39,656 bases of DNA from Kayfunavirus AN17P1: the sequence record OZ035755.1; one strand, written 5' to 3'. Positions 1 to 19,172 of this stretch are shown one piece after another. The notes below the pieces were generated by a model. The model saw only the letters and a program-made list of their open reading frames with translations. It was not told where the DNA came from and did no database searches. Both the position numbers and the translations under genes were made by a program. Numbering within the stretch: the stretch's first letter is position 1; every line of letters starts with the position of its first letter.

Positions 1-29
1 TACAAAACGATTAAAGGAGGTGGTAAAAC

Positions 30-293
30 ATGACGCAGATGGACTTAGAGAAGTTCCTCTTGATGCTGGATACTGAACGTGCTAGACTCATGCTGCAAGA
101 CCTGCGGGATGACTCTAAGCGTTCACCTCAGCTTTACAACGCCATTGAGAAGCTACTGGCTCGTCACAACTTCGTGCTAAGCAAGGTGTCTGTTGACGAG
201 AAGACGCTCGCTGATATGGAGGCTTTGAACAGGGAGTACGATAAGGTGCTCTCAGCTACTGAGGATAACGACACCGGGTATGGTGTACAGTAA
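30..293 (+). CDS. gene 18: Terminase small subunit / DNA maturation protein A (T7 gp18-like), 87 aa
   Basis: Strong SD AAAGGAGG upstream of ATG; size and position immediately before the spanin pair and terminase large subunit match T7 gene 18 (89 aa). Confidence 0.7.
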   Translation: MTQMDLEKFLLMLDTERARLMLQDLRDDSKRSPQLYNAIEKLLARHNFVLSKVSVDEKTLADMEALNREYDKVLSATEDNDTGYGVQ

Positions 294-346
294 GTGTTAG
301 ACTCAAGGTCATTACTATATGTAGTGGCCTTTATGGTTAACACACA
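294..346 (+). promoter_or_regulatory. Conserved imperfect stem-loop, putative RNase III processing site (R18.5-like)
   Basis: Motif AGACTCAAGGTCATT...GTGGCCTTTATG with outer arms GTGTTA/TTAACAC; near-identical elements at 9451-9492 and 16631-16677; T7 has RNase III sites at the equivalent positions. Confidence 0.4.
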
Positions 347-394
347 CTACGGGCGGAGACGCTACGTGGATTCTGAGAAATGAGGAGGGCAACT

Positions 395-832
395 ATGCTC
401 GAACTTTTACGTAAAGCAATCCCGTGGCTGGTTGCAGGACTCCTGTTCTGTTCTGGCTACTGGGTGGCAGACAATAAGTGGGAGGCGAAGGTAAACAATG
501 AGTACATCACGAAACTTGAGGCACGAGAGAATCAACGGGCTGCTGTCCAAGGTGAAATCAACAAAGTGTCAGCCGAGTGGCAAGACAAGATGTCCGCGCT
601 GGAAGGCTCTACTGATAGGATTATTGCTGACCTTAACCGCGATAACAAGCGGCTGCGCGTCCGAGTCAACACCTCAGGTCTCACCGAGTCAGATGTCAGT
701 AGATGCTTCCCTAATGGTAGAGTCGAACTACACCCAGAAACTTCTAAAAGTCTTATCCGATTAACTCAGGAGGCAGACCTTAAGGAGAAGGCGCTTCAGG
801 ACACAATAAGGAGGCTCCAAGGTGTTAAGTGA
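395..832 (+). CDS. gene 18.5: i-spanin (Rz-like, T7 gp18.5 homolog)
   Basis: Translation MLELLRKAIPWLVAGLLFCSGYW... resembles T7 gp18.5 N-terminus (MLEFLRKLIPW...) as I recall it; N-terminal TM segment; SD GAGGAGG 7 nt upstream of ATG 395 (the track's ATG 380 lies inside the SD). Confidence 0.8.
   Translation: MLELLRKAIPWLVAGLLFCSGYWVADNKWEAKVNNEYITKLEARENQRAAVQGEINKVSAEWQDKMSALEGSTDRIIADLNRDNKRLRVRVNTSGLTESDVSRCFPNGRVELHPETSKSLIRLTQEADLKEKALQDTIRRLQGVK
498..764 (+). CDS. gene 18.7: o-spanin (Rz1-like lipoprotein, T7 gp18.7 homolog) embedded in +1 frame of 18.5
   Basis: 88-aa ORF wholly inside the i-spanin gene in another frame; lipobox-like LTAITSGC followed by Pro/Ser-rich region; same embedded arrangement as T7 18.5/18.7. 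Confidence 0.75.
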   Translation: MSTSRNLRHERINGLLSKVKSTKCQPSGKTRCPRWKALLIGLLLTLTAITSGCASESTPQVSPSQMSVDASLMVESNYTQKLLKVLSD

Positions 833-1259
833 TTACTACAAAGTGGACCCGGCTAGTCCATCCGGTCTGGTCTCCGTTAGGACTGGAAAGCCTGTGGGGA
901 CATTAAGTCGGATGGGATATTGGATAGTACAGACACGAAGTCTAGGCAGTAAGCGGGCCCATCGTGTGATATGGGAACTAACCAATGGTCCTATACCGCA
1001 TGGTATGCAAATAGACCACATCGACAGGAACCCTAGCAATAATACCTTAAGTAACTTACGGCTCGTTACTGCCGCTGAAAACACTTGGAATACTGGTAGC
1101 CATTATGACTCTAAGACAGGAGTGAAGTGCGTTACCCGTCACCAGAATGGTTATAGGATTCAGGTTAAACGCGGGAATGCCTATATGCGAACAACACGTC
1201 CCACTTTAGAGGAGGCTATCGCTGTCCGGGACCTAATGCTGGAGGGACTATATGTCTAA
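822..1259 (+). CDS. HNH homing endonuclease (HNH plus AP2-like DNA-binding region), 145 aa
   Basis: Motif [41 protein letters not shown] typical of phage HNH endonucleases; GTG start with SD AAGGAGG; overlaps the 3' end of 18.5 and the 5' end of terminase; T7 has no gene here. Confidence 0.8.
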
Positions 1260-3018
1260 GAAAACACCCGCTGAAAGACAGGCAGAAATGGTCCAAAGGA
1301 TGAGGGACGACTTCGTGTTCTTCATCTTCGTTCTCTGGAAAGCACTAAGTCTTCCGGTTCCAACCCGCTGCCAGATAGATATGTGTAAGAAGCTGGCTGC
1401 TGGGGATAATCGCCGCTTCATCCTTCAGGCGTTCCGTGGTATTGGCAAGTCGTTTTTGACCTGTGGCTTTGTGGTCTGGAAGCTATGGAATAACCCAGAC
1501 TTGAAGTTCATGATTGTGTCGGCCTCAAAGGAACGAGCCGATGCGAACTCCATCTTCATCAAGCGAATCATCGACCTCATGCCTCAGCTTCGGGAACTCA
1601 AACCTAAGCAGGGGCAGCGAGATGCGGTTATCAGCTTCGACGTTGGACCAGCCAAGCCAGACCACTCACCTTCGGTTAAGTCCGTTGGTATCACTGGTCA
1701 GTTGACTGGTAGTCGTGCTGACATCCTGATTGCCGATGACGTGGAGGTTCCGAACAACTCAGCGACTCAGGCTGCACGAGACCGTCTATCAGAGCTTGTG
1801 AAAGAGTTCGACGCTATCCTGAAGCCGGGAGGTACGATCATCTATCTGGGTACTCCTCAGAACGAGATGACCCTGTACCGTGAGCTGGAAGGTCGTGGGT
1901 ACACCACTACTATCTGGCCCGCTCGTTATCCACGCGACAGGAAGGACTGGCAGTCTTACGGCGACCGTCTGGCTCCTATGCTTCAGGCAGAGCTGGAAGA
2001 GGACCCTGAGTCCTTCTACTGGCGTCCGACTGATGAAGTACGCTTCGATGATACGGACCTGAAGGAACGTGAGCTGTCCTACGGTAAAGCTGGCTTCGCT
2101 CTACAGTTCATGCTTAACCCGAACCTGAGTGATGCCGAGAAGTACCCTCTTAAGCTCCGTGACCTTATCGTAGCCGACTTGGACCCAGCGTCCAGCCCAA
2201 TGGTCTACCAATGGTTGCCGAACCCTCAGAACAAGCGTGAGGACGTTCCTAACGTTGGACTCATGGGTGACTCGTACCACACGTATCAGACTGTAGGTTC
2301 TGCCTTCAGCTCATACACCCAGAAGATTCTGGTCATTGACCCTAGTGGTCGTGGTAAGGATGAAACTGGATATGCGGTACTGTACCAGCTCAACGGCTAC
2401 ATCTTCGCTATGGAAGTTGGTGGCATGCGTGGTGGTTATGAAGACTCTACGCTGGAAGCCTTGGCTAAGATTGGTCGTAAGTGGAAGGTCAACGAGTACG
2501 TCATTGAGGGTAACTTCGGTGATGGTATGTACCTTGAGTTATTCAAGCCTGTAGCGGCCCGTATCCATCCTTCGTCTGTAACTGAAGTGAAGAGTAAGGG
2601 TCAGAAAGAACTCCGCATCTGTGACGTTCTGGAGCCTATCATGGGGTCTCACCGACTTATCGTTAACGCTGCTGCTATAGTCCAAGACTACCAGTCTGCC
2701 TCTGATAAGGATGGTGTTCGTAACCCTATCTACTCTCTCTTCTATCAGATGACACGTATCTCTCGTGAGCGTGGAGCCTTGGCACACGATGACCGACTTG
2801 ATGCGCTGGCTATCGGTGTACAGTTCTTCGTTGAGTCTATGGCTAAGGATGCTAGCAAAGGCGAACGTGAAGTCACTGAGGAATGGCTGGAGGAACAGAT
2901 GGAGAACCCACGGAAAGGCTTCGAGTCCATCCACACTGAGTTCTGGGACAATGGGGTCCGGGTAACTCACGATACGGACGACGAGCTTGGACTAGGGGCA
3001 TACGTTACGTTACACTAG
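1252..3018 (+). CDS. gene 19: Terminase large subunit (T7 gp19 homolog), 588 aa
   Basis: Length and position match T7 gp19 (586 aa); Walker A-like GIGKS and ATPase/nuclease-type motifs (LIADDVEVP); strong SD GGAGGGACTAT before ATG. Confidence 0.95.
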
Positions 3019-3027
3019 CTGAATGAA

Positions 3028-3076
3028 TAACTATAGGTGAAAGCTGCATGAATAAGCAGTTAGTAACCTATAGTTA
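3028..3076. repeat. Perfect 11-bp inverted repeat TAACTATAGGT / ACCTATAGTTA with 27-nt loop
   Basis: Arms at 3028-3038 and 3066-3076 are exact reverse complements; arms contain the promoter core ACTATAGG; lies directly after the terminase stop. Confidence 0.5.
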
Positions 3077-3112
3077 CTACCAGTCTAACATACTGTTTTA
3101 TAAGGAGTTTGG

Positions 3113-3136
3113 ACTTAACTATCACTATAGGGAAGA
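3113..3136 (+). promoter_or_regulatory. Phage RNAP promoter (phiOR-like, right end)
   Basis: TTAACTATCACTATAGGGAAG matches the 11-member consensus CTAAACTATCACTATAGGGA; +1 G at about 3130. Confidence 0.75.
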
Positions 3137-3315
3137 CCCCCGGTTACTTATAGTATTACTGTAGTGAATATACATATGCAGACTTTATTCAAGACCTTAG
3201 GAGGCAGACTCCGAGTTCTTACCTAAGGCTTGCACCGATGGAAGGAGGGTGATATTAATCATAATCCCTCCAATACAGATAGTCACCGACCATAGATACA
3301 GGAGGTATGTAGCAT

Positions 3316-3474
3316 ATGGCAAAGACCAAAGCTGTACTTAAAGCTCTGGCGACCAATCGAGCTACATACAGGTTTCTTGCTGCTGTTCTACTTGCTGCTG
3401 GCGTTACTGCTGGAAGTCAGTGGGTCGGGTGGGTCGAGACTCTCGTATGTTCTCTGGTCTCTCAGTGTAATTAA
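3316..3474 (+). CDS. Small membrane protein, 52 aa (gene 19.5 position)
   Basis: ATG with SD ACAGGAGG; translation MAKTKAVLKALATNRATYRFLAAVLLAAGVTAGSQWVGWVETLVCSLVSQCN has one hydrophobic helix; below the 60-aa track cutoff so read directly from sequence. Confidence 0.45.
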   Translation: MAKTKAVLKALATNRATYRFLAAVLLAAGVTAGSQWVGWVETLVCSLVSQCN

Positions 3475-3699: not shown

Positions 3700-4100
3700 A
3701 GTGTCGCCTGACCTACGGTCCTTGACCTACAGTAGCTGCCACCTACAGTATTCGATGAGTTTTGGACCAAAAGTTTGAGACCACATCTCACAGTTCAAGA
3801 ACCTCAAGTCTCCCCATAGGCCCTCTTTCAGTCCAGACCAAAGGCCCTACCCCAGTCTATCATAAGGTTAGACCGATGGTCAAGACTTCAGGTCAACGAT
3901 AGGTTGTGGCTATGGCTTAGGGAAGGACGATAGGTAGGGACTATTGGTCTGTCTTTGAGTCTCTATCTGTATCAGACCTTGAGTCACTACCTACAGTCTA
4001 ACTACCTACAGTCTAACTACCTACAGTCTAACTACCTACAGTCATCGACCATCGGTAATGCCGCTACCTACAGTCAGAGACCTACGGTTAATAGACACAA
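3700..4100. repeat. Genome terminus region: putative direct terminal repeat flanked by CCTAC(A/G)GT short repeats
   Basis: TCTCACAGTTCAAGAACC...CCCCATAGG at 3786 resembles the T7 (TCTCACAGTGTACGG) and T3 left-end sequences as I recall them; repeated GACCTACGGT / CACCTACAGT motifs on both sides mirror the CCTAAAG arrays flanking the T7 terminal repeat; no CDS. Repeat length cannot be read from a collapsed assembly. Confidence 0.5.
3986..4044. repeat. Tandem array, about 3.9 copies of 15-bp unit ACTACCTACAGTCTA
   Basis: Exact copies at 3986-4000, 4001-4015, 4016-4030 and a partial copy at 4031-4044. Confidence 0.9.
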
Positions 4101-9429: not shown

Positions 9430-9453
9430 CCTAAACTATCACTATAGGATTAG
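9430..9453 (+). promoter_or_regulatory. Phage RNAP promoter (phi1.1-like)
   Basis: CCTAAACTATCACTATAGGATTA; consensus match. Confidence 0.75.
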
Positions 9454-9492
9454 ACTAAAGGTCATGACTCAAAGTCGTGGCCTTCATGATTA
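9451..9492 (+). promoter_or_regulatory. Conserved stem-loop, putative RNase III site (R1.1-like)
   Basis: AAGGTCATGACT / AGTCGTGGCCTT arms (9458-9469, 9473-9484) with two G-U pairs and a 3-nt loop; same family as 294-346 and 16631-16677. Confidence 0.4.
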
Positions 9493-16630: not shown

Positions 16631-16677
16631 GTCTAGACTCAAGGTCATTCACATCGAGTGGCCTTTATGATTAGACT
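16631..16677 (+). promoter_or_regulatory. Conserved stem-loop, putative RNase III site upstream of the DNA polymerase gene
   Basis: GTCTAGACTCAAGGTCATTCACATCGAGTGGCCTTTATGATTAGAC; third member of the family at 294-346 and 9451-9492. Confidence 0.4.
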
Positions 16678-16693
16678 AAACGGAGGATTAACC

Positions 16694-18865
16694 ATGTTTG
16701 ACCTTAAGAGTATCTGGGGTTCTGACATCGAGACCAACGGTCTCCTTGATACAGTCTCCAAGTTCCACTGTGGGGTCCTGATTAACGCCGAGTCGAATGA
16801 GACCCTTAAGTATGGGGTAGCTCCGATGGTCGGTATCGTCGGTGGCTTCAAAGAGTATGTACAGAAGGTGGAAGAAATTGCTGCAACGCCTACGGGTATG
16901 CTGGTCTTCCATAACGGTATCAACTATGACGTCCCGGCTATTGACAAGCTGAAGCGTTTGTACTTTGGGAAACGATTTAACTTCCCGAAACACAAGATGA
17001 TTGATACCTTGGTGCTGGGCCGCTTGATGTATCCAAACATTAAGTTCTCAGACATGGGCGCGGTGAAAGCTGGTCGTCTGCCCCATAAGATGATGGGACG
17101 CCAGTCTCTTGAGGCTTGGGGCTATCGTCTAGGTGAGATGAAGGGTGAGTACAAACACGATTACGTTGCCAAGTGCAAGGCTGAAGGTATCGAATATAAG
17201 GCTGGGGACGAATGGTTGTTCCCATCTCAGGAGATGCTAGACTATAACGTTCAAGACGTTGTGGTCACACTGGCGTTGTTCAAGAAGTTCCTGACTGACA
17301 AGTATTACTTCCAGTCTGAACAGCTCGCTTTCGACCAGATTTATGCGTTGCGTCTGGAACATGATGCTGCGTGGACCTGTGCGAAGATGGAACGTAACGG
17401 ATATCCGATGAACACCGAGATGGTCGAAGGATTATATCGTGAACTCACCGTCAAACGTGCAGAGTTGTTGGACAAGCTGCGTTCGACTTTCGGTAGCTGG
17501 TACGCACCAAAGGGAGGCAAGGAGTTCTTCAAGCACCCACGGACAGGCAAGGACCTTCAGAAGTATCCGCGAGTCGTGTATCCTAAGGTCGGGTCAGTAT
17601 TCAAGAAGCCGAAGAACAAAGCTCAACGCTTAGGTATTGAACCTTGTGAACGCGATACGCGAGACACGATGGAAGGAGCACCGTTCACGCCAATCACTTA
17701 CGTTGAGTTTAATCCGGGAAGCGGAGACCACTTAGCGAAAGTCTTGATGGAGCGTGGTTGGGAGCCTGTGGACTTCACTGACACTGGGAAACCTGTAGTT
17801 GATGACGAGACGTTAGAACACGTTAAGTTACCAGACGCAGAGGCTCAGGCTTGCGTAGAGCTGGTCCGTGAGTATCTGGTAGTCCAGAAGAGAATCGGGC
17901 AGGCTGCTGAAGGTAAGAACGCATGGTTGAAACTTGTAGGTCCAGACGGACGTATGCACGGTTCAATCAACCCTTGTGGAGCAGTAACAGGACGTGCGAC
18001 CCATAGTTCACCAAACATGGCTCAGGTCCCGGCTAACGGTGCTCCGTATGGTGAGACTTGCCGTGGTGCTTTCGGTGCAGCGTGGAACAAGAAGGACGGT
18101 AAGCCAGACCCTTGGATTCAAGTAGGCGTGGATGCTTCAGGTCTTGAGCTTCGTTGTCTGGGGAACCGAGCGGCTCCGTTTGATGGTGGAGATTATGCGA
18201 AGACTGTGGTCGAAGGTGACATACACTGGGCAAACGCAGTCAACGCTGGGTTAGCACCTAACGTCCCACGCGACAAGTCGAGCCATGACCACGATGCTTT
18301 CCGTAATAACGCCAAGACGTTCATCTATGCGTTCCTGTATGGTGCAGGGGCCGCGAAGATTGGACTGATAGTTGGTGGTGGTAAGAAGGAAGGTGCGGCC
18401 CTGATGAAGAAATTCATTGAGGGTACACCAGCTATCAAGGACCTGCGAGAGGCTGTGCAGAACACGCTCATCTCAGAGTCGAAGTGGGTAGATGGTGAGA
18501 ACATCGTGAAGTGGAAACGTCGCTGGCTGAAAGGTCTGGATGGTCGCAGAATTCACATCCGGTCACCACACTCAGCACTTAACGCCCTACTTCAGGGTGA
18601 TGGTGCGGTTGTCTGTAAGCACTGGATGGTACTGACTGAGAAGAAACTTGAAGAGGCTGGTTACGGTAACGGATGGGACGGTGACTTTGCGCTAATGGCT
18701 TGGATTCACGATGAATTGCAGATAGCGTGCCGTACTCAGGAGATAGCAGAAGATGTCGTCCGTATTGCTCAAGAGGCGATGCGCGAGGTCGGACGCTTCT
18801 ATAACTTCAAGTGTGAACTTGATACGGAGGGTAAGATTGGACCAACGTGGAAAGAGTGTCATTGA
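16694..18865 (+). CDS. gene 5: DNA polymerase (T7 gp5 homolog), 723 aa
   Basis: Start MFDLKS... with SD ACGGAGG; collinear T7 gp5 motifs as I recall them (DIETNGLLDTVSKFHCGV, NVQDVVVT exonuclease site, AKTFIYAFLYGAG, HDELQIACR). Confidence 0.96.
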   Translation: MFDLKSIWGSDIETNGLLDTVSKFHCGVLINAESNETLKYGVAPMVGIVGGFKEYVQKVEEIAATPTGMLVFHNGINYDVPAIDKLKRLYFGKRFNFPKHKMIDTLVLGRLMYPNIKFSDMGAVKAGRLPHKMMGRQSLEAWGYRLGEMKGEYKHDYVAKCKAEGIEYKAGDEWLFPSQEMLDYNVQDVVVTLALFKKFLTDKYYFQSEQLAFDQIYALRLEHDAAWTCAKMERNGYPMNTEMVEGLYRELTVKRAELLDKLRSTFGSWYAPKGGKEFFKHPRTGKDLQKYPRVVYPKVGSVFKKPKNKAQRLGIEPCERDTRDTMEGAPFTPITYVEFNPGSGDHLAKVLMERGWEPVDFTDTGKPVVDDETLEHVKLPDAEAQACVELVREYLVVQKRIGQAAEGKNAWLKLVGPDGRMHGSINPCGAVTGRATHSSPNMAQVPANGAPYGETCRGAFGAAWNKKDGKPDPWIQVGVDASGLELRCLGNRAAPFDGGDYAKTVVEGDIHWANAVNAGLAPNVPRDKSSHDHDAFRNNAKTFIYAFLYGAGAAKIGLIVGGGKKEGAALMKKFIEGTPAIKDLREAVQNTLISESKWVDGENIVKWKRRWLKGLDGRRIHIRSPHSALNALLQGDGAVVCKHWMVLTEKKLEEAGYGNGWDGDFALMAWIHDELQIACRTQEIAEDVVRIAQEAMREVGRFYNFKCELDTEGKIGPTWKECH

Positions 18866-18896
18866 CCATCGAACCCAGACCCTACGCTTCCATACC

Positions 18897-19172
18897 ATGC
18901 CTACCGGATGTATCGTCTGCGTGTCCCACAAGAGGAACCAAGATGGGTACTTCCGGTACTCCATGGGAAGCTACAGGAAGGGCAACAAGTTCGCCTTCAT
19001 GTTCCACCGATGGGTGTGGGAGCAGAAGCGCGGACCTATACCAAATGGCTACGAGATAGACCATTTATGCTTGAACCGTGGGTGCTGCAGCATAGAGCAT
19101 CTACAGTGTATTCCAAAACGCGAACACGTCATTAAGACGAACCGTGAGCGCAAACTTGTTAAGAAGGAGTAA
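18897..19172 (+). CDS. HNH endonuclease, 91 aa from ATG 18897
   Basis: HRWVWEQKRGPIPNGYEIDHLCLNRGCCSIEHLQCIPKREH is an HNH motif with Cys zinc ligands; the in-frame ORF opens at 18753 inside the polymerase gene, so the start is uncertain and no clear SD precedes 18897. Confidence 0.65.
   Translation: MPTGCIVCVSHKRNQDGYFRYSMGSYRKGNKFAFMFHRWVWEQKRGPIPNGYEIDHLCLNRGCCSIEHLQCIPKREHVIKTNRERKLVKKE

Follow-up and report, generated by a model that had tools for sequence, protein, structure and literature searches.

A likely homing endonuclease gene between the spanin and large terminase genes of Kayfunavirus AN17P1

The HNH gene, its neighbours and its product

The DNA analysed here (the window) is a stretch of 39,656 nucleotides from Kayfunavirus AN17P1 (sequence record OZ035755.1). 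It is a circularly permuted Kayfunavirus genome and shows 98.3% identity over 3.1 kb to Kayfunavirus PDP21P1 and Escherichia phage vB_EcoP-101118UKE1. In the ORF listing of the window, an ORF at 822..1259 on the plus strand encodes a 145-aa HNH protein from a GTG start. The ORF overlaps both of its neighbours on the same strand, gene 18.5 (380..832) by 11 nt (822-832) and gene 19 (1252..3018) by 8 nt (1252-1259), and ATGTCTAA is the sequence common to its stop and the start of gene 19. Gene 18.5 encodes the Rz-like i-spanin (Phage_lysis; PHROG 1327, E 2.8e-54). Gene 18.7, encoding the o-spanin, is nested in it at 498..764 on the plus strand, as indicated by a match of residues 29-87 to PF17531 O_Spanin_T7 (E 1.3e-19) and by the annotation of Penshu1; its true start is probably downstream of 498. 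The product of gene 19 is a large terminase of the T7 type (PF22530), which has its own RNase H-like nuclease domain in the profile search, and the small terminase subunit at 30..293 is also a profile-confirmed neighbour. A sequence-only reading of this region had described a 145-aa HNH-family ORF that overlaps a spanin and a terminase gene by 11 and 8 nt, and the ORF listing and the Phage_lysis, O_Spanin_T7 and PF22530 matches bear out both the coordinates and the neighbours.

The 3' end of gene 18.5, whose last 11 nt are within the HNH ORF, also holds the ribosome-binding site of this ORF, AGGAGG at 809..814 on the plus strand, which ends 7 nt ahead of the GTG. The GTG start is supported by a diverged allele of the gene (allele B, described below), which has an ATG where the window has this GTG and whose product likewise begins with MLSD. 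The other end of the ORF (1180..1259, plus strand) is near-identical in DNA between alleles A and B, and it includes the ribosome-binding site of gene 19 (GGAGGG, 1241-1246) and the ATGTCTAA overlap.

A family of promoter-like sites of the phage-RNA-polymerase type with the consensus CTAAACTATCACTATAGGGA has 12 copies in the window, at 3108, 6359, 9425, 9490, 11285, 12250, 14636, 20653, 23477, 24486, 29274 and 36550. No such site was found between 36550 and 3108 of the permuted genome, and a scan of 1-3400 for sigma-70 promoters and terminators gave nothing above shuffles. The HNH gene has no promoter of its own and is therefore co-transcribed with the late genes 17 to 19. Its translation is probably low and coupled to the end of the spanin gene through the weak GTG and the 11-nt overlap; low expression is typical of homing endonuclease genes.

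The HNH protein matched Pfam HNH_3 (PF13392) with E 6.7e-21 and 74.1 bits against a curated cut-off of 24.8 bits, and its residues 44-87 covered profile positions 1-44 of 46. PHROG 99, "HNH endonuclease", covered residues 2-144 (E 7.4e-41). Both matches are far beyond chance. When the protein was aligned with 28 homologues out of a large protein collection (29 sequences in total), H47, D65, H66, L79, R80, N87 and N90 were invariant and N74 and N78 nearly invariant, and the window protein has all nine of them. The catalytic core (951..1082, plus strand; residues 44-87) holds H47, D65-H66, N78 and N87, with N90 just beyond it, and these catalytic residues align with the VDH...NLR...N motif of I-HmuI. 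The AlphaFold (AF2) model of the protein had a pLDDT of 91.9, and in the fold search it matched I-HmuI (PDB 1U3E). Fold searches were needed for this relationship because the sequence-only search of the PDB gave a borderline I-HmuI match (E 0.063).

The sequence-only reading had proposed a domain search for HNH_3 and AP2 as a check. HNH_3 matched the window protein, and Pfam AP2 did not. Among the 29 homologues, 14 are matched by AP2 at the equivalent C-terminal position, and the diverged allele C shows a weak match. The predicted C-terminal domain of the window protein (1119..1241, plus strand; residues ~100-140), with three strands and a helix, superposed on AP2/ERF domains in the fold search and would thus have an AP2/ERF-like DNA-binding fold. 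An hhalign comparison of the C-terminal ~54 residues of the close subfamily with the AP2-bearing homologues was uninformative (probability 3.9%, Neff ~2), so the AP2 assignment of the window protein rests on the predicted fold. Because AP2 matches the homologues at the equivalent position, the layout of the modelled protein is taken as the common phage architecture of homing endonucleases with HNH_3 and an AP2-like domain.

The same early reading had named the loss of the catalytic His and Asn residues as the sign of a degenerate relic. H47, D65-H66, N78, N87 and N90 are all present, and because these residues are kept together with an I-HmuI-like fold, the ORF is not such a relic; its assignment to the HNH family stands on the HNH_3 and PHROG 99 matches, the intact residues and this fold. 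The dN/dS ratio was 0.09 between the window and CR44b, both within allele A, and 0.25-0.29 between alleles A and B, for which dS was about 1.2. These values indicate that the protein is under purifying selection and that the alleles are old.

Empty, occupied and scarred sites in relatives

The gene is already known. Its annotation as a predicted homing endonuclease dates from the genomes of CR44b and CR8, and it was discussed in the paper on Hafnia phage Ca. Gene 3.8A of CR44b (YP_009007189, "predicted homing endonuclease") is in the same slot, with 97% aa identity and identical overlaps with 18.5 and 19, so the window gene is its equivalent. The present analysis adds to this by sorting the sites into naive, occupied and scarred ones, by distinguishing three alleles, and by describing the cassette transferred between genera and the pattern of mini-ORFs in the scars.

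Several relatives have no HNH gene in this slot. In T7 there is only a 21-nt spacer between 18.5 and 19, in agreement with the early reading that the position is empty in this phage. K1F and Monomax have an annotated spacer of 29 nt, but an upstream TTG within the spanin stop (ATTGA) gives MSKDLVARQALMTARMKADF, which aligns with the N-terminus of the window gp19, and gene 19 of these two phages probably starts at this TTG. IME177 and GA2A lack a spacer altogether: their gene 19 begins inside 18.5, at a GTG that gives an 11-nt overlap, and its ribosome-binding site is the AAGGAGG which in the window belongs to the HNH ORF. We considered whether IME177 and GA2A could represent a third type of deletion scar, but this was rejected: neither end of the HNH ORF contains anything that corresponds to their junction, GTGGCGAAT, and they were therefore treated as naive sites. 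The junctions of K1F/Monomax and IME177/GA2A indicate that 18.5 and 19 are directly coupled in the naive state and that the HNH gene is placed exactly in this joint. As a side observation, gene 19 of K1F (NC_007456, locus 1455-1500) is annotated from an internal ATG, and the TTG start would add 10 codons (MSKDLVARQAL...), as it would in Monomax. Because the added codons align with the N-terminus of the window gp19, the annotated start in K1F is probably too late.

Where the slot is occupied, three alleles were found. Allele A, with 13 records at >=95% aa identity in the phage collection, is carried by the window, CR44b ("3.8A"), TH16, yong1, ST10/11/16/56 and the CHRF_300xx phages. Allele B has about 65% aa identity to the window protein and an ATG start on the spanin stop. 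The 60-80% band of the phage collection contains 41 records, and carriers of allele B include the PRF-SP, STP-SP and CRW-SP Salmonella phages, RDN8.1, PM129, Enterobacter phages and Caroctavirus CR8. Allele C, of 128 aa and with 33-34% identity, is present in P7124 and pO91. The occupation of this one slot is thus patchy, with alleles A, B and C set against empty sites and scars among close relatives. The sequence-only reading had said that presence of the gene at this site in all relatives, T7-like references included, would speak against it; such a distribution was not found, since the slot is empty in T7, K1F/Monomax and IME177/GA2A.

The scarred sites retain pieces of the gene. In KM02 and Penshu1, the 35-nt "spacer" consists of the first ~21-26 nt and the last ~27-32 nt of the HNH ORF, and the two pieces join at a 5-nt direct repeat, GGACC, whose copies in the window are at 845..849 (left) and 1229..1233 (right) on the plus strand. 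This corresponds to a 384-nt in-frame deletion. R1 has the same type of junction with a 3-nt insertion, and its deletion has the same endpoints. Ro45lw has another junction, which keeps 822-840 and 1206 onward, with an extra 1-nt deletion. Because both ends of the ORF are kept and the junctions differ, KM02, Penshu1, R1 and Ro45lw are deletion derivatives that arose in at least two independent events. Each scar has a mini-ORF that opens at the HNH start and closes at the HNH stop on the ATG of gene 19; it has 17 aa in KM02 and Penshu1, 18 aa in R1 and 23 aa in Ro45lw, where the extra 1-nt deletion restores the frame. The retention of the mini-ORF may be due to chance or may reflect translational coupling. 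Comparison with relatives that lack the gene had been proposed as a check on the early reading; it has now defined both the empty sites (T7, K1F, IME177/GA2A) and the scarred sites (KM02, Penshu1, R1, Ro45lw). For the view that the gene was established rather than freshly inserted there is now stronger support than the overlaps gave: remnants of both ORF ends persist in close relatives that lack the gene, and the purifying selection agrees with it.

A loss of the same gene has been described directly in Hafnia phage Ca, which is the same phage as yong1 and is 94.8% identical to the window over 3.1 kb. ORF48 of this phage is the same gene in the same slot, and it differs from the window by a few substitutions and by one extra T in yong1. 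The authors reported that the gene overlaps both neighbours and that a spontaneous 397-bp deletion removes it; complete genomes accounted for >98% in large plaques, whereas in small ones >98% carried the deletion (PMC8861465). Among repeats at 397-bp spacing in yong1, only the 4-nt TGGA was found. The extra T of yong1 (MK610268, locus ~590-600) is near codon 19 of the HNH ORF, where the sequence reads CCGTTTAGG in yong1 and CCGTTAGG in the window. This T reflects either an error in sequencing or a true frameshift. The GenBank record of yong1 annotates the "homing endonuclease" as a CDS of just 45 aa, and the paper gives a 143-aa ORF from an alternative GTG (PMC8861465).

Mobility of the gene and the reading of the locus

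Kayfunavirus PM129 or PRF-SP11 was compared with Caroctavirus CR8 by segment and in 50-nt bins. The identity was 51-52% in gene 18 and 59-61% in the spanin gene, 97.5-97.9% in the HNH gene (allele B), 95-97% in nt 1-300 of gene 19, 80% in nt 301-900 and 71% in nt 901-1760. In the 50-nt bins, PM129 and CR8 share an allele B block of ~700 nt with 98-100% identity, which starts ~20 nt ahead of the HNH gene and reaches ~250 nt into gene 19, between flanks of 50-85% identity; this indicates that the allele B cassette moved horizontally between the genera recently. No HNH-less close relatives of CR8, which could provide the recipient allele and a candidate target site, were found in the phage collection. 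K1F, which never had the HNH gene, showed 68-76% identity to the window over the first ~200 nt of gene 19 and 91-100% thereafter. The PM129/CR8 block and the divergence pattern of K1F indicate that the HNH gene and the 5' end of gene 19 (its first ~210-250 nt) moved as a unit. Such a pattern is what co-conversion during homing would produce, and the target may be the 18.5/19 junction itself or a site within the initial ~250 nt of gene 19.

The alleles also replace each other. The window and PM129 are 99.2% identical in nt 301-900 of gene 19 and only 64% in the HNH gene. Alleles A and B thus sit in near-identical backbones and are swapped by recombination; the right-hand junction of the swap is within the last ~70 nt of the HNH ORF, which are near-identical in A and B. 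Separately, the 5' half of the spanin gene (380-620 of the window) is 53-75% identical to CR44b, and the identity is ~95% from ~620 onward. The spanin gene is thus a mosaic too, and its recombination breakpoint lies ~200 nt ahead of the HNH gene.

We consider it likely that the ORF is a free-standing homing endonuclease gene, long resident in this slot and still mobile, which encodes an I-HmuI-like HNH_3 nuclease with an AP2-like domain. The family and fold, the intact active site, the purifying selection, the patchiness, the cassette transfer between genera and the deletion scars all support it here. In a co-infected cell, the enzyme would nick or cut an HNH-less relative near the 18.5/19 junction, most likely inside the first ~250 nt of gene 19, and recombinational repair off the HNH-bearing genome would copy the gene along with the neighbouring 5' part of gene 19. 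The genome of the phage itself would be immune to the putative enzyme. In the literature we found no biochemical assay of the window protein or of any allele. The gene would be an old resident of the CR44b-like Kayfunavirus slot, where diverged alleles replace each other and where it may occasionally be lost by microhomology-mediated deletion. Such a history resembles the usual cycle of invasion, maintenance and loss of homing endonuclease genes. The selfish character proposed by the sequence-only reading agrees with the patchy distribution, the three alleles in one slot and the apparent transfer of the cassette; the finding is real, it was read correctly, and it is an ordinary one.

Some observations weigh against the homing endonuclease reading. 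The signature of transfer between genera belongs to allele B, whereas allele A has been seen only in closely related backbones, and for the allele of the window the co-conversion-like sign is only the indirect one of the K1F divergence in the first ~200 nt of gene 19. Patchiness and mosaic flanks also result when T7-like phages recombine in the ordinary way, with no endonuclease involved. Moreover, the small plaques of Hafnia phage Ca with deleted genomes hint at a fitness contribution, which is unexpected for a purely selfish element.

Comparison with known systems places the gene among free-standing elements. I-HmuI, the HNH homing nickase of Bacillus phage SPO1, has 174 aa, compared with 145 aa here, and 20-22% identity. 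Its gene lies within a group I intron, and helical and helix-turn-helix modules that bind DNA form its C-terminal end; the window gene, unlike it, is free-standing and its product has an AP2-like C-terminal end. In this it is like the free-standing Seg and Mob genes of the T-even phages and the nuclease genes of ICP1, which are intergenic, present or absent, co-inherited with adjacent markers and located at an exchange boundary. The Seg proteins are GIY-YIG enzymes, and cleavage and marker exclusion have been shown experimentally in these known systems. For the ICP1 phages, nuclease genes at recombination boundaries are described in PMC10448857.

The small plaques of phage Ca can also be viewed from the side of gene 19. 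The HNH gene, or translation through its ORF, could be useful in cis by setting the expression of gene 19, with the cassette supplying the ribosome-binding site and start of the terminase gene; gene 19 would be translated by ribosomes ending on the overlapping TAA, and only deletions keeping a small upstream ORF would be tolerated. GGAGGG and the ATGTCTAA overlap are indeed inside the cassette, the naive genomes couple gene 19 directly to the spanin (by the GTG with 11 nt in IME177/GA2A and probably by the TTG in K1F/Monomax), every natural scar keeps a mini-ORF (17, 18 or 23 aa), and the deletion variant of Ca is enriched in small plaques. Nevertheless, only two independent natural deletions are available, for which retention of the frame by chance is about 1 in 9. 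RNA folding at both gene junctions and at the KM02 and Ro45lw scars gave no structure beating shuffled controls (z-scores +1.2, +1.8, -1.5 and +0.8), and the ribosome-binding site of gene 19 was not significantly sequestered; as the folding was no better than shuffles, there is no support for an RNA hairpin that regulates the starts of the HNH gene and gene 19. A role in cis would explain the mini-ORF but not the purifying selection on the whole 145-aa protein with its intact active site. We regard such a role as unlikely, and it is compatible with the homing endonuclease reading rather than a true alternative to it. A related idea, which we also hold with little confidence, is that the cassette captured the translation start of the terminase gene, replacing the native spanin-coupled start of gene 19 upon insertion, so that the terminase would now be made only by ribosomes that complete the HNH frame upstream. 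If this is true, the element would be hard to lose cleanly, and natural survivors would be limited to deletions with a mini-ORF that ends on the start of gene 19, as an "addiction by translational coupling" of a selfish gene.

The early reading had also mentioned that HNH genes next to terminase genes may take part in packaging, and the protein could be an accessory that aids the terminase in cutting concatemers, as HK97 gp74 does. HNH-motif proteins of the HK97 gp74 type are likewise found beside a terminase gene, but they belong to another HNH family and go with another type of terminase. The HNH of the cos phages is of the PF01844 type, while the window protein combines HNH_3 with a predicted sequence-reading AP2-like domain, typical of homing enzymes, and the T7-type terminase has a nuclease domain of its own. 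The HNH gene of the window is directly upstream of the large terminase gene and translationally coupled to it, and its deletion is tied to small plaques in Hafnia phage Ca; the packaging idea was raised for the same gene, without a test (PMC8861465). A gp74-like protein would be conserved wherever its terminase type occurs, yet the HNH gene is absent in T7, K1F, KM02, Penshu1, Ro45lw and IME177, with gene 19 segments up to 100% identical, and the last five are viable with gene 19 93-100% identical. The gene in this slot is thus dispensable in nature, unlike gp74, which is essential in HK97 as summarised in PMC8861465. A packaging role is therefore unsupported as an essential function, with >93% identical gene 19 in HNH-less relatives, and we judge it very improbable. 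That the ORF is a decaying, inactive relic kept only through its overlap with essential signals is highly unlikely too, and was rejected on the intact catalytic residues and low dN/dS (0.09-0.29): the repeated loss in relatives and the +1 T frameshift near codon 19 in the GenBank record of yong1 would fit it, but the ORF is full-length with every catalytic residue, its model is confidently folded and its sister allele has spread recently between genera.

The practical value of a homing endonuclease gene in this slot is modest. It marks a recombination hot spot beside the terminase gene in T7-like coliphages of the therapeutic type, and it would explain some of the mosaicism and the plaque-size heterogeneity reported for a close relative. 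The compact predicted HNH-AP2 nuclease of 145 aa may be of use for characterisation of new specificities. The three alleles, the cassette with ~250 nt of gene 19 shared between genera and the mini-ORF scars are of possible interest for homing endonuclease research, and they leave the classification of the gene unchanged.

Other HNH_3 genes and minor observations

A second HNH_3 ORF is present at 18753-19172 on the plus strand (139 aa; HNH_3 E 3.9e-19, with a weak match to a zinc-binding loop), where it overlaps the end of the DNA polymerase gene (16658..18865). Over the HNH core, its product shares only ~33% identity with the 822..1259 protein, and the genome therefore carries at least two HNH_3 genes. 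HNH_3 genes are also found at other joints in relatives, at 18/18.5 in YZ1 and after gene 19 in CR44b ("3.8B", from 3230), Ro45lw and a Przondovirus (Klebsiella phage 150031); in the window there is no HNH gene after gene 19. To judge from these positions, the surroundings of the terminase gene look like a general landing zone of HNH_3 genes in Studiervirinae.

An element of ~42 nt (TAGACTCAAGGTCATT ... AGTGGCCTTTATGGTTA) has three copies in the window, at 298-339, 9451-9492 and 16634-16673, one of which is in the 18/18.5 spacer. In T7 this spacer position has an RNase III processing site, and the three copies may be RNase III hairpins. Downstream of gene 19, a perfect 15-nt tandem repeat, ACTACCTACAGTCTA, is present in about 4 copies at 3986-4043, with related CTACCTACAGTC motifs at 3723-3753 and 4032-4088; this repeat is probably in the region of the genome end or concatemer junction.

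The record OR786095.1, "Staphylococcus phage MBBL139" with S. aureus as the host, has a Kayfunavirus-type region of spanin, HNH allele B and terminase that is typical of enterobacterial phages, and its host label looks doubtful.
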